DNA from: Escherichia phage Pollock
Length of the DNA stretch: 64,000 nt
Direction: 5' to 3' (one strand)
Sequence record: NC_027381.1
Shown: piece by piece, positions 11,021 to 63,988 of the stretch
Layout: every line of letters begins with the position of its first letter
How positions within the stretch are numbered: the stretch's first letter is position 1
Position numbers and translations under genes: made by a program
Notes under the pieces: generated by a model
What the model saw: only the letters and a program-made list of their open reading frames with translations
What the model was told of the DNA's origin: nothing
Databases searched by the model: none

Positions 11021-11050
11021 AAGCCTACTTAGTAGTAGGCTTTCATTTTT
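11021..11050 (+). terminator. Rho-independent terminator
   Basis: aagcctact-tagt-agtaggctt stem-loop followed by a T-rich run. Confidence 0.7.
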
Positions 11051-11069: not shown

Positions 11070-11153
11070 ATGCGTCCTACAGCTATTAAAAAAGCTATTG
11101 AAAGAGCTTTTGCAGCAGGACTTGTTCCTTTTATTAAAGGTAGTCCGGGTATT
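11070..11153 (+). CDS. MoxR-like AAA+ ATPase, exon 1 (N4 gp24-like)
   Basis: Encodes MRPTAIKKAIERAFAAGLVPFIKGSPGI, ending in the first half of a Walker A motif (GSPGI) right before an in-frame TGA. Confidence 0.65.
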
Positions 11154-11543
11154 TGATTTTACAAGATACCCTAAGCAGTGATGCTTAGTAAAAAATCCCT
11201 TGAATTGCTGGAAACCCTTAAAGCTGAATTAACTACTGCGAGTTGAAAAACAAAGCCAATGTTTAAAAATAATTCAGATATGTAGGCAATCAGCAGCCAA
11301 GCTCCTAAGGTTTAGGATATTAAGCTATGGAGAAGGTTCAACGACTAGGCGTAAGCCGTACACTCAAGTGAGTGGAAGTGGGGGACTCTTTACAAACTTA
11401 CCACCATGGAATACCTTTTGTATTTGCAAAGAAAGGTCTATGTCGTAAATGTAGTAAAGATGAAGATATAGTCTCGTCTTATGTGAAAGCATAAGCTGTT
11501 TAATAAACAGAGGGTAGCTTAACGAACTACCCTGAAGATTACG
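11154..11543 (+). ncRNA. Group I intron, ORF-less (intron 1 of the MoxR-like ATPase gene)
   Basis: Contains td-type core elements: P-like AATTGCTGGAAA, Q-like AATCAGCAGCC, R-like GTTCAACGACTAG, S-like AAGATATAGTCT; 5-prime exon ends in U and intron ends in G; splicing restores Walker A GSPGIGKS. Confidence 0.7.
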
Positions 11544-11786
11544 GGTAAATCTGCAATTATTCGTCAAATTGCAAAAGAAGCTAAATTATTGGTTATTGAC
11601 CTTCGTTTAGGTCAATGTGACCCAACTGATTTATTGGGATTTCCAAATATTGAGAATGGACGGTCTGTATATCATCCACCAAAAGATATTCCAATTATTG
11701 GGGATGAAATTCCTAAAGGATATAACGGTTGGCTGTTATTCCTTGATGAAATGAATACAGCACCTAAAGCTGTTCAGGCTGCTGCT
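11544..11786 (+). CDS. MoxR-like AAA+ ATPase, exon 2
   Basis: Encodes GKSAIIRQIAKEAKLLVIDLRL...GWLLFLDEMNTAPKAVQAAA: Walker A completion plus Walker B LLFLDEMN, matching MoxR LLADEINRAPPKTQSALLE. Confidence 0.7.
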
Positions 11787-12630
11787 TAAATTAATAGGCA
11801 TTTATGGGGGAAACCTCATATCTAAAGCTACTTAAAACGGGGAACTCTTAGTAGTGTATATACACTAAAGACAATCCGTTGCTAAATAGGAATTAAGATG
11901 CAAGAAGTTTGGAAAGCTATTCCCGGATATGAGAAAGAATATGAAATTTCTACTCATGGACGGATTAAGAGTTTAGATAGAGTCGTTCCTTGTAAACATG
12001 GCACTCGCCTTGTTAAAGGAAAATTATTAAAAACCTATATTAATCGAAAAGGGTATTTAATTGTTACTTTATCTAAAGAAAATAAACTGAAAACATATAC
12101 CGTACATCAGTTAGTTGCTCTTACATTTATTCCAAATTTCATTAAAGGCACAGAAATTAATCATAAAGACGGTAATAAATCCAATCCAGTATTAGATAAT
12201 TTAGAAATTAGCAACCCTAGCCATAACCAGTTACATGCTATAGCTACAGGTCTTAAAGCAAAGGTTGGTAAGAGTAAATACCACAATGTAACTTACATTA
12301 AAAACCCACGGGCTAAGAAAAAGTGGGCTGCAAGTATAAGTTATAATGGGGAAAAATCTTTTGGATGGAAAACATTTATGACAGAAGAAGAAGCTGCAAG
12401 ATATGTAGATAAACTTCTTGATGAAATAGGTGATACTTCCCGTTTAAGAAATTTCTAATTAATTCCTTAAATGCCCAACGACTAGTCGAAAGACGTAGGC
12501 TCAAGTGAGTCGAAAAAGTAGCTCCCCAAACAAGTAAAGTTGTGGGGATTGATATAGTCTGCTCTATATAGAAATATATAGCTGGATTAATTATCCGGGT
12601 AATGATTAACGACCATTACTGAACATAAGG
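11787..12630 (+). mobile_element. Group I intron carrying an HNH homing endonuclease (intron 2 of the MoxR-like ATPase gene)
   Basis: R-like CAACGACTAG and S-like GATATAGTCT elements downstream of the HNH ORF; exon ends in U, intron ends in G; splicing yields AVQAAAYKLLDRMVGQT, matching MoxR QSALLEAMQERQVTIGGQT. Confidence 0.7.
11898..12458 (+). CDS. Intron-encoded HNH homing endonuclease
   Basis: N-terminal WKAIPGYEKEYEISTHGRIKS (NUMOD4-like), HNH core HQLVALTF...NHKDGNKSNPVLDNLE...HNQLH, C-terminal AP2-like WAASISYNGEKSFGWKTFMTEEEAARYVD. Confidence 0.8.
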   Translation: MQEVWKAIPGYEKEYEISTHGRIKSLDRVVPCKHGTRLVKGKLLKTYINRKGYLIVTLSKENKLKTYTVHQLVALTFIPNFIKGTEINHKDGNKSNPVLDNLEISNPSHNQLHAIATGLKAKVGKSKYHNVTYIKNPRAKKKWAASISYNGEKSFGWKTFMTEEEAARYVDKLLDEIGDTSRLRNF

Positions 12631-13320
12631 TATAAACTGTTGGACCGTATGGTAGGACAAACCAAATTACATCCTAGTGTTTATATTGCTGCTGCTGGTA
12701 ACAAAGATACAGATGGAGCAATTACTACTACTATGAGTAGTGCAACTCTATCTCGTATTGTTAGTATGGAACTAGAAGTTAACTTTAATGATTGGGCTGT
12801 ATGGGCATTAGCCAATAACATTGACCATCGCATCATGGGATATCTTCAGTTCAAACCAGAAGCATTCCATAAATTTGACCCTAAAAATCTTAAAGAACCT
12901 TTTCCATGCCCACGTACATGGGAGTTCATTAACCGTGCTATTAATGGATTAGATGTATCTTTAAATTCTGATTTGGGTTTATTGTCTGGAATTATTGGTA
13001 ATGGCACTGCTCGTGAATTTATTGAGTATTGTGCTATCTATGGTGAGATTGCTTCCTTTGAAGAAATTATGTCTAATCCAGAAAGCATTGTCATCAAAGA
13101 CAGACCAGACATTAAGTATGCATATGCTGGTTTTGTAGCTTCTCGCATTACCCCTGAAAATGCATCTCAATTAATGAAATTCATTAATCGACTGCCCGTT
13201 GAATTTCAGATTGTAACTTTGAGTAATGCTTTTAAAGCTAAACCTCTCATTTCTCAAGTTCCAGAAATAATGGAATGGATTACTCGTTATGCCAACGAGT
13301 CAGGTGAAGGGATGCTCTAA
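12631..13320 (+). CDS. MoxR-like AAA+ ATPase, exon 3
   Basis: Encodes YKLLDRMVGQTKLHPSVYIAAAGNKDTDGA..., the sensor and C-terminal region of an AAA_5/MoxR ATPase; an in-frame stop lies a few codons upstream of 12631. Confidence 0.7.
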   Translation, partial: YKLLDRMVGQTKLHPSVYIAAAGNKDTDGAITTTMSSATLSRIVSMELEVNFNDWAVWALANNIDHRIMGYLQFKPEAFHKFDPKNLKEPFPCPRTWEFINRAINGLDVSLNSDLGLLSGIIGNGTAREFIEYCAIYGEIASFEEIMSNPESIVIKDRPDIKYAYAGFVASRITPENASQLMKFINRLPVEFQIVTLSNAFKAKPLISQVPEIMEWITRYANESGEGML

Positions 13321-14434
13321 TAAGGAGTTTCCTATGGATAAGAATAAAGCACTGGATTTAGCCAAAGTAGATTTATTTGCCCGTAAACAAAATACTTTTA
13401 TTTGTTCCATCTTTTGCTCACTTCAGCTTAAGTGGGACGATACCATCCCTACAGCTTGTACTGATGGTTTGAGTATCTTGATAAATCCAGATTATTTTAT
13501 GGATTTACCACGTCCAATGCGAGTGACACTTCTTGCTCATGAGACGTGGCATGTTGCTTTAAAACATGTCTTAAGGGTTACGGGAAGAAATCCAAAATTA
13601 TGGAATTATGCTTGTGATTATTACATCAATAATATGCTTGATGATGCTAAGTATGTTATTGGTACTGGTTGGCTATTAGACCATCAGTATGATGGCATGA
13701 GTGCTCCAGAAATCTATAACAAGCTACAAAAATCCAGTAAAAACCTGCCTCAAAATTTATTAGGTATGGATATTAAACCCTGTCCTTCTTCATCAGAAGA
13801 AGCTATTGAATCACAAATTGATTCTATGCTTATTCGTGGCTCTATTGCTGCAAAGCAAGGAGGACAAGCTGGAAGTATCCCCGGAGATATCCAAGCATAT
13901 ATTGATGAGCTTCTGAATCCTAAATTACCTTGGAACGATATTCTCAGAAATTTTATTAATGAGATGACTCGTAATGACTACACTTGGGCTAAACCTAATA
14001 AACGGTATTTGCCTGATATTTATTTACCTTCTCTAAATTCTGAAGGTCTAGAACATATCATTTTTTATACTGATATTTCTGGTTCAGTATCTGATACACA
14101 ATTTGGTGTGTATATCAGTGAAATTCATGCAATTAAAACAACATTGAATCCAAAACGAATTACAGTATGTACGTTCGATACAAAGATTCATGAAGTGTAT
14201 GAATTAGAAGAAGGAGATGATATTAGTAAGTGTACGTTTACAGGTAGAGGAGGTACATCTCTTACTTGTGTGTATGAACATGCTAAGAAAGAGAAACCAG
14301 AACTCATCGTAATATTTTCTGATTTGGATTGTGCTCCAATGAAGGAACAACCTACACCTAATGTCATTTGGGTATGTTTGGACAATCCAACAAAAACAGT
14401 TGATTTTGGTCAACTGATTCATGTGAAAAGTTAA
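13289..14434 (+). CDS. VWA-domain protein with HExxH motif (MoxR partner; N4 gp25-like)
   Basis: HExxH-like LLAHETWHVALKH in the N-terminal half; MIDAS-like FYTDISGSVSD in the C-terminal half; sits directly downstream of the MoxR-like ATPase. Confidence 0.65.
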   Translation: MPTSQVKGCSNKEFPMDKNKALDLAKVDLFARKQNTFICSIFCSLQLKWDDTIPTACTDGLSILINPDYFMDLPRPMRVTLLAHETWHVALKHVLRVTGRNPKLWNYACDYYINNMLDDAKYVIGTGWLLDHQYDGMSAPEIYNKLQKSSKNLPQNLLGMDIKPCPSSSEEAIESQIDSMLIRGSIAAKQGGQAGSIPGDIQAYIDELLNPKLPWNDILRNFINEMTRNDYTWAKPNKRYLPDIYLPSLNSEGLEHIIFYTDISGSVSDTQFGVYISEIHAIKTTLNPKRITVCTFDTKIHEVYELEEGDDISKCTFTGRGGTSLTCVYEHAKKEKPELIVIFSDLDCAPMKEQPTPNVIWVCLDNPTKTVDFGQLIHVKS

Positions 14435-63480: not shown

Positions 63481-63988
63481 TTATTAGTTTAGTATGAGCA
63501 ACTTCTTTAGCGGAATACAAACCACCTTCAATGAGTTGTTGCTGCTTCGCAGCTAATCTTGAAGTTATTTCTCTTAATTCATTAATAACTCCACCTTCCT
63601 GAATACCAACATTGAGTTCAATCTTACTGGCTTCAGGACGTTTAAGATGATTAAGCAATGAGTTGGCTGCATCACATCTAACTTTTTCACTTTTAGCTGT
63701 CAACATTAAATCAGCTTGTACATTAATAGCTTTCTGGAATATGTCAGCATTAAGTACATGAGTTGGAACCAAAGTTTGCTCATAAATTAAATTAACTAAT
63801 TTATTTTTATTATATGCAGATACATAACAATGAATGTCCTTAGTAGGAGTATTGTTATTTAAGAAGTTCTGATATCTATCAGGGAATGTTTTTATGTAAG
63901 CTTCAAAGTTAGTGTGTCCCATCAGTTTAAAACTTACGTACTTAACAGCAGAGATATAGTCTTCAATCTTAAACCTACCTTCTTTCAT
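63452..63988 (-). CDS. Hypothetical protein upstream of large terminase (possible small terminase; may extend beyond called start)
   Basis: ORF immediately upstream of and overlapping the terminase large subunit start; near the window edge. Confidence 0.35.
   Translation of the reverse strand: MKEGRFKIEDYISAVKYVSFKLMGHTNFEAYIKTFPDRYQNFLNNNTPTKDIHCYVSAYNKNKLVNLIYEQTLVPTHVLNADIFQKAINVQADLMLTAKSEKVRCDAANSLLNHLKRPEASKIELNVGIQEGGVINELREITSRLAAKQQQLIEGGLYSAKEVAHTKLIIDGESERVD

Follow-up and report, generated by a model that had tools for sequence, protein, structure and literature searches.

The DNA analyzed here, hereafter the window, is a 64,000-nucleotide (nt) stretch of Escherichia phage Pollock (NC_027381.1), an N4-like (Schitoviridae) genome with a virion RNA polymerase open reading frame (ORF) of 3537 amino acids. 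It shares 79-84% nucleotide identity with Salmonella Ithacavirus phages and Klebsiella phage Pylas, and its best matches in INPHARED and IMG/VR are Ithacavirus phages (81-85% identical). Within the DNA-metabolism region lies the homologue of N4 gp24, a MoxR-like ATPase gene in three exons, separated by two intervening sequences that have the structure of group I introns, the second of them with an HNH homing endonuclease gene in one of its hairpin loops (Table 1).

Table 1 Features of the interrupted ATPase gene, its two introns and the gene downstream (positions in the window)
Feature	Position	Strand	Description
ATPase exon 1	11070-11153	+	28 codons, MRPTAIKK...GSPGI; gapless alignment to intron-less orthologues
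Intron 1	11154-11543	+	390 nt, no ORF; predicted td-like/IA-type group I; begins with in-frame TGA, terminal G11543
Intron 1 helices, 5' part	P2 11171-11188; P4 11206-11211/11290-11295
Intron 1 helices, P7 region	P7 11343-11347/11469-11473; P7.1 11348-11357; P7.2 11361-11374
Intron 1 helices, 3' part	P8 11387-11393/11454-11460; P9 11478-11495; P9.1 11496-11510; P9.2 11511-11533
Endonuclease-gene remnant	11420-11494	+	inside P8/P7'/P9 of intron 1; last 24 codons (VFAKKGLCRKCSKDEDIVSSYVKA) and stop kept
ATPase exon 2	11544-11786	+	81 codons, GKSAII...DEMNTAPKAVQAAA; completes Walker A, Walker B (LLFLDE) inside
Intron 2	11787-12630	+	844 nt, predicted group I, td-like (putative IA2-type); begins with in-frame TAA, terminal G12630
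Intron 2, 5' ribozyme part	11787-11897	+	Rfam partial match 33.5 bits, minimum free energy fold
Intron 2 5' helices	P1 11783-11788/11795-11800 (U11786.G); P2 11803-11820; P3 5' strand 11826-11833
Intron 2 helices, P4-P6	P4 11836-11841/11875-11880; P5/P5a 11846-11871; P6 5' strand 11881-11882; P6a 5' strand 11888-11896
Homing endonuclease gene	11898-12458	+	186 amino acids, terminal loop of P6a; NUMOD4 and HNH_3, I-HmuI-like
Intron 2, 3' ribozyme part	12459-12630	+	Rfam partial match 28.9 bits, minimum free energy fold, covariation
Intron 2 3' helices, first part	P6a 3' strand 12459-12467; P6 3' strand 12473-12474; P7 12480-12484/12555-12559; P7.1 12485-12494; P7.2 12498-12511
Intron 2 3' helices, remainder	P3 3' strand 12516-12523; P8 12524-12547; P9 12564-12581; P9.1 12582-12598; P9.2 12599-12619
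ATPase exon 3	12631-13320	+	229 codons and stop; YKLLDRMVGQT...GEGML
Downstream gene	13334-14434	+	DUF2201 metallopeptidase with VWA-like domain; Pfam DUF2201_N 6.6e-43, DUF2201 6.7e-25

An ATPase gene in three exons

Joined end to end, the exons make 1017 nt (338 codons), the same length as the intron-less orthologues, and the spliced product aligns without a single gap (85% amino acid identity) to the ATPase that Salmonella phages FSL SP-076 and SP-058 encode in one piece; at the DNA level both intervening blocks are clean insertions. Exon 1, preceded by a ribosome-binding-site-like AAAGG 7 nt 5' of its ATG, ends in GGT ATT (GSPGI) and runs into an in-frame TGA, exon 2 opens with GGT AAA TCT (GKS) and closes with GCT GCT GCT (AAA) before an in-frame TAA at 11787, and exon 3 begins with TAT AAA CTG (YKL). 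Both introns are in phase 0, and none of the three exons contains a frame-shift or internal stop. One breakpoint falls in the Walker A loop (GSPGI/GKS, the slash marking the junction) and the other 11 residues past Walker B (AVQAAA/YK), such that Walker A (GSPGIGKS) and Walker B (LLFLDE) of the AAA+ domain are complete only after conceptual splicing. The spliced protein exceeds the Pfam cut-offs for AAA_5 (26.2 bits, cut-off 22) and AAA (24.2 bits, cut-off 21.2) and matches PHROG 1297 ('ATPase') at 1e-121, and the SP-076 and SP-058 orthologues carry the annotation COG0714 MoxR-like. An earlier note on this DNA had described a MoxR-like AAA+ ATPase gene split in Walker A and again after Walker B, with exon junctions that follow the rule of U before the intron and G at its end, and an HNH endonuclease in the second intron; these claims hold, and its exon and intron coordinates, junctions and P, Q, R and S core motifs are correct to the base.

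Introns at the same codons occur in other phages, with a sporadic distribution like that of mobile elements. No intron is present in SP-076, SP-058 and five IMG/VR contigs (two of the five being the SP-058 and KpCHEMY26 genomes), only the first in an N4-like IMG/VR contig of 73 kb (UViG_3300045988_020372, hereafter L011), only the second in Pylas (NC_049444, gp35/gp36; Schitoviridae, Humphriesvirinae) and in another N4-like IMG/VR contig of 74 kb (L016), and both in the Vibrio phage VCO139. With these two sites occupied in Pylas, two IMG/VR contigs and VCO139/JA-1, the earlier note overstated the case in calling two such introns unusual for an N4-like phage.

The two predicted ribozymes and their endonuclease genes

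The Rfam model of group I introns (RF00028), whose curated gathering score is 50 bits, matches intron 1 over the full model (1-253) at 101.4 bits (E 4e-25), in agreement with the earlier note, and the scan of the 64-kb window gave no match besides those to the two introns, which greatly exceed what chance would produce. Its P1 pairs the exon stretch GGGUAUU (11147-11153) with GAUACCC of the internal guide sequence (11165-11171), with a U.G wobble at U11153, the exon strand being made of the last 6-7 exon nt (11147/8-11153). The core motifs P (AATTGCTGGAAA at 11203) and Q (AATCAGCAGCC at 11288) are found in intron 1, while R (CAACGACTAG, at 11339 and 12476) and S (GATATAGTCT, at 11465 and 12551) recur in both introns. 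A third copy of the S motif at 63953-63962 was dismissed as a chance match, lying inside a minus-strand gene (PHROG 2109) beside the large terminase with no Rfam signal and no other intron features. Both introns have P7.1 and P7.2 (GGC-GUAA-GCC and CACUC-AAGU-GAGUG in intron 1, GUC-GAAA-GAC and GGCUC-AAGU-GAGUC in intron 2) between P7 and the 3' strand of P3, a predicted arrangement that places them in subgroup IA; that they are IA2, and not IA1 or IA3, is suggested by their similarity to td introns. A U.G pair stands at both 5' splice sites (U11153 and U11786), and a terminal G at both 3' splice sites (G11543 and G12630), likewise in L011, Pylas, L016 and VCO139.

MAFFT alignments with the Vibrio introns misplaced the 3' strand of P3, P8 and the deletion described below, and pairwise alignment with hand-placed helices was used instead. 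By this approach compensatory changes were seen at 19 of 55 comparable positions in intron 1 and at 22 of 47 in intron 2 (three homologues each). P1 of intron 1 covaries across phages, its exon strand and guide reading GGUAUU/GAUACC, GGAAUU/GAUUCC and GGUGUU/GACACC, and this exon-guide covariation appears to us the most telling sign of selection on the predicted intron 1 ribozyme. The P9.2 loop shows a different pattern, with UUAACGA at 11519-11525 and 12606-12612 as well as in L011, Pylas and Lactococcus phage AM1, and GUAACG in VCO139 and L016; the core UAACG is common to all these introns while the stem covaries freely, which suggests a conserved tertiary contact or a protein site.

In intron 2 the covariance-model search gave two RF00028 partial matches flanking the 561-nt ORF (33.5 and 28.9 bits; E-values of 8.5e-5 and 2e-3 when the 64-kb window is searched as a whole), and they are two sub-threshold pieces because this ORF stands between them. 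The ORF fills exactly the loop of P6a, a perfect 9-bp hairpin in which AGGAAUUAA (11888-11896) pairs with UUAAUUCCU (12459-12467). When the ORF was swapped for a GAAA loop (283 nt plus a 4-nt linker, i.e., 287 nt) and the sequence folded without constraints, the minimum free energy structure contained P2, an 8-bp P3 around P4-P5-P6/P6a and P7.1/P7.2, then P8, P9, P9.1 and P9.2, with z = -4.66 against dinucleotide shuffles; all helices were recovered save the pseudoknotted P7, whose strands GACUA and UAGUC form the expected pseudoknot. P1 pairs UGCU/UA with UAGGCA, the U.G pair falling on the last exon base, U11786.

The protein encoded in this loop matches Pfam NUMOD4 (60.9 bits, 1.4e-16, cut-off 23.4) and HNH_3 (28.1 bits, 1.5e-6, cut-off 24.8) as well as PHROG 59 'HNH endonuclease' (3e-40). 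Its closest solved relative is I-HmuI (PDB 1U3E, E 4e-12 over residues 5-136), with whose HNH region the motif ...EINHKDGNKSNPVLDNLE...SHNQLH aligns, and it is 61% identical to the ORF of the Pylas intron and 68% to that of L016. An AP2-type DNA-binding domain in its C-terminus was considered and rejected, as Pfam gave it no support up to E = 10, and an exact-sequence look-up in the assembly index found the endonuclease not on record. Its ribosome-binding site (AGGA) is inside the 5' strand of P6a, which, by analogy with other phage introns, suggests that translation of the endonuclease may compete with folding of the ribozyme.

Compared with the 888-nt intron of L011, which occupies the same GSPGI/GKS site and has a complete 185-amino-acid HNH ORF in P8, intron 1 is 94-97% identical on either side of a single 506-nt gap (pairwise alignment). 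The gap corresponds to L011 2870-3375, its junction in the window is at 11418/11419, and it removes the ribosome-binding site, the ATG and most of the HNH ORF, leaving last 24 codons identical to those of L011. The comparison argues firmly that intron 1 formerly carried an HNH gene in P8, lost through this 506-nt deletion; what is left today would be a compact ribozyme incapable of homing on its own. The window and L011, the latter with no intron 2, form a clean natural before/after pair for the loss of a homing-endonuclease gene from a group I intron.

Proposed splicing and mobility, and competing explanations

We consider it highly probable that the MoxR-like ATPase gene of Pollock is interrupted by two mobile, td-like, IA-type group I introns that splice out. 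Several observations weigh against this view. Self-splicing, endonuclease activity and mobility are properties that we infer from the established biology of group I introns and homing endonucleases. The exons have a ratio of nonsynonymous to synonymous substitution rates of ~0.1 against three relatives (0.11 for exon 3 vs SP-076), which speaks for this view, but the value sums the time before the introns arrived and is no proof that the interrupted gene is currently expressed. P10 is short (5 bp) in intron 1 and unclear in intron 2, and P8 of intron 1 has, since the deletion, a non-native loop of 60 nt that could in principle impair folding. Intron 2 gives no single RF00028 match at the gathering score, only its two halves, and even the annotated Pylas intron has no Rfam match at E <= 0.01. 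GenBank, however, gives Pylas a joined coding sequence described as 'ATPase split by intron', with an 'HNH homing endonuclease encoded in intron'; as this intron is annotated and yet silent in Rfam, a missing match does not argue that an ORF-bearing intron is absent. At its default settings Rfam systematically overlooks group I introns that carry an endonuclease gene.

The formal pair count, which covered the three closer intron 2 homologues (the window and the ORF-deleted introns of Pylas and L016), bears a similar caution. In their alignment 93.4% of cells pair across 76 pairs, and changes on both sides are seen in 18 pairs vs 6.2 ± 2.0 in 500 shuffles, none of which reached 18, and 1-4 in slid-partner controls, values favored by taking the structure from the window's own sequence and by comparing only three sequences; P1 and P7 are invariant among them. 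The origin of the structure and the small number of sequences flatter the percentage of paired cells but, in our judgment, do not explain the excess of compensatory pairs.

The 60-nt insert left in P8 is also an argument for regarding intron 1 as a splicing-dead relic, its ribozyme crippled by the 506-nt deletion and the ATPase reduced to a pseudogene or made without its P-loop, and the statistics of purifying selection, which mostly reflect the history before the deletion, would not speak against it. We nevertheless judge this very unlikely: the full-length Rfam score of intron 1 (101 bits) tops those of its ORF-containing relatives (52-56 bits), its core helices and P1 are all intact, the P8 stem (UCUUUAC/GUAAAGA) is kept on either side of the deletion, no disabling mutation is present in the exons, and intron 2 and its ORF are intact. 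Intron 2, in turn, could be seen as a free-standing HNH cassette that disrupts the ATPase, with group-I-like flanks as inactive leftovers, given that it lacks a single Rfam match above the gathering score and that N4-like phages commonly have free-standing HNH genes (PMC3670811). Such a cassette is hard to reconcile with two complete halves that complement one another across the ORF (in P3, P6, P6a and P7), with an ORF placed exactly in a hairpin loop, with 18 compensatory pairs kept in three lineages whose endonucleases share only 61-68% identity, and with the conservation of the U.G pair and the terminal G in all homologues, and we grant it only a slim chance.

It could also be argued that nothing needs to be joined, the three ORF pieces being independent small genes or an assembly artefact. 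Gene callers would indeed cut the ATPase into three separate ORFs, missing the 28-codon exon 1, and an error of the same kind is found in public records of Vibrio phages, where the pieces are annotated as separate 'ATPase' coding sequences. Yet exon 2 does not begin with a start codon, exon 1 alone would give 28 amino acids ending within the P-loop, and the same insertions are present in independently assembled genomes. The earlier note had reckoned with relatives in which the pieces might be independent genes; instead, the close relatives SP-076 and SP-058 have one continuous 338-amino-acid gene, and the probability of this explanation is practically nil.

If the introns splice as we propose, each would fold after transcription, its internal guide pairing with the last 6-7 exon nt to form P1, with the U.G wobble at the cleavage site. 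Free guanosine would be bound in P7, and two transesterifications would excise the intron up to its terminal G, rejoining GSPGI-GKS and AVQAAA-YK into one 338-amino-acid protein. The in-frame TGA and TAA at the first codon of each intron would keep ribosomes out of the ribozymes, and with its Shine-Dalgarno sequence inside the P6a stem the endonuclease would probably be held back from translation while the ribozyme is folded. During mixed infections, the endonuclease may nick or cut intron-less alleles near the insertion site (in FSL SP-076, GCTGCTGCA/TACAAA), and repair would copy intron 2 together with flanking exon sequence into them, i.e., homing.

Exon sequence around both sites is nearer to Pylas/L011-type alleles than to the window's overall closest relatives, e.g., at the intron 2 site the window reads GCT/TAT AAA CTG TTG vs GCA/TAC AAA CTG CTA in SP-076, which is only suggestive of imported co-conversion tracts. 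Intron 1 is only 243 bp upstream of the intron 2 insertion site, and because of this short distance it could be co-converted along with intron 2. We tentatively raise the possibility, without holding it to be likely, that intron 1 hitch-hikes in this way whenever the intron 2 endonuclease cuts, one endonuclease maintaining two introns; the Pylas/L011-like exon flanks and the joint presence of both introns in Vibrio phages would fit such an arrangement.

Neighboring genes and related introns

The ATPase gene is followed by a gene for a DUF2201 metallopeptidase with a VWA-like domain (Table 1), and a VWA-domain gene is the usual companion of MoxR-type ATPases. HExxH is present in this downstream gene, and an earlier start at 13289, overlapping the ATPase stop, is possible; its orthologues (RefSeq, PHROG 1314) are labelled 'HNH endonuclease', apparently a propagated mis-annotation. 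The gap that separates the ATPase start from the gene upstream contains, at 11021-11042, a 9-bp hairpin (AAGCCTACT-TAGT-AGTAGGCTT) followed by TCATTTTTC, terminator-like in a consensus scan. A tRNA scan over the 64-kb window found none.

Pylas offers the nearest counterpart of intron 2, an 853-nt intron at the identical AVQAAA/YK site with a ribozyme ~76% identical over the non-ORF parts and an orthologous NUMOD4/HNH endonuclease in the same P6a loop. It differs in having a P-loop without intron and in that its endonuclease ORF extends into the 3' strand of P6 and P7; the Pylas genome announcement and the KP8 paper, searched for introns, mention none. In L016 the same intron 2 interrupts an ATPase whose exons are only 41-65% identical to those of the window.

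The Vibrio cholerae N4-like phages VCO139, JA-1 and JSF3 (Pacinivirus) have introns at both homologous codons (GSPGV/GKS and VQAAA/YK), and their gp24 homologue becomes, after conceptual splicing, an uninterrupted protein of 377 amino acids, 37% identical to that of the window. The core of their first intron is ~72% identical to that of intron 1. Unlike the window, they keep an HNH ORF in both introns, one of 191 amino acids in P8 of the first and one of 128 amino acids in the second that starts upstream of the 3' strand of P4 and overlaps it, the P7.1/P7.2 region of the second being much expanded. Fouts et al. (2013) already noted that the HNH gene splitting the gp24 homologue 'may be carried on an intron' (PMC3670811), but the paper did not recognize the first Vibrio intron or the 33-codon exon 1, which are not annotated either. 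The public record of VCO139 (NC_049350.1; 891-989, 990-1929, 2260-2981) is without this 33-codon ATPase exon (…VAGSPGV) and has the first HNH gene (gp71) as free-standing, when it is actually part of a group I intron of 940 nt in the P-loop (Rfam 52 bits); the VCO139 ATPase has two introns, vs the single split of the 2013 paper.

Earlier papers have reported or suggested group I introns in N4-like phages (PMC5746245, PMC3670811), e.g., in td of the Schitoviridae Vibrio phage pVa5 (PMC5746245). Within the Schitoviridae we also noticed a group I intron (2449-2714, 82.5 bits), kin of intron 1, that splits the 'DNA-dependent RNA polymerase' gene of Pseudomonas phage Pa_WF01; an unnamed 222-amino-acid ORF comes after it, and the same sequence is unannotated in many Litunavirus records. 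In Vibrio phage phi 1 (NC_028799.1, 1832-3718), of the same family, the DNA polymerase is in two coding sequences with two HNH endonuclease genes between them and a 163-nt stretch 73% identical to the 3' half of intron 2, a split that probably represents one or two further group I introns. Lactococcus phage AM1 (NC_049854.1) has two 'ribonucleotide reductase' coding sequences with a group I intron between them (1286-1531 on to ~1685, Rfam 87 bits) that has neither ORF nor annotation and shares with intron 2 (12551-12582) an identical 32-nt segment from the 3' strand of P7 to P9 (GATATAGTCTGCTCTATATAGAAATATATAGC), despite hosts in different phyla.

The Pollock introns are a further instance of ordinary phage selfish DNA at already-occupied sites, with no new mechanism. 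The allele family at this locus (no intron, intron 1, intron 2, or both) spans N4-like phages infecting Salmonella, Klebsiella and Vibrio and makes a compact system for studying how introns are gained and lost, as well as co-conversion and marker exclusion when phages co-infect.

Among the known systems, the td intron of phage T4 (subgroup IA2, encoding I-TevI) is a close parallel, T-even td introns showing ~69% identity over ~200 nt. The td intron likewise has the P/Q/R/S core, P7.1/P7.2, an ORF looped out of P6 and an in-frame stop near the 5' splice site; it differs in its host gene (thymidylate synthase) and in having a GIY-YIG, not an HNH, endonuclease. I-HmuI, to which the intron 2 endonuclease is nearest among solved structures, is an intron-encoded HNH nicking enzyme from the DNA polymerase intron of Bacillus phage SPO1. 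The relatives of both introns found by blastn include introns of staphylococcal phages, and orf142 of Staphylococcus phage Twort is reportedly a precedent for a phage gene with several group I introns. The introns of SPO1 and Twort differ from those of Pollock in residing in other host genes, in phages of other host phyla.

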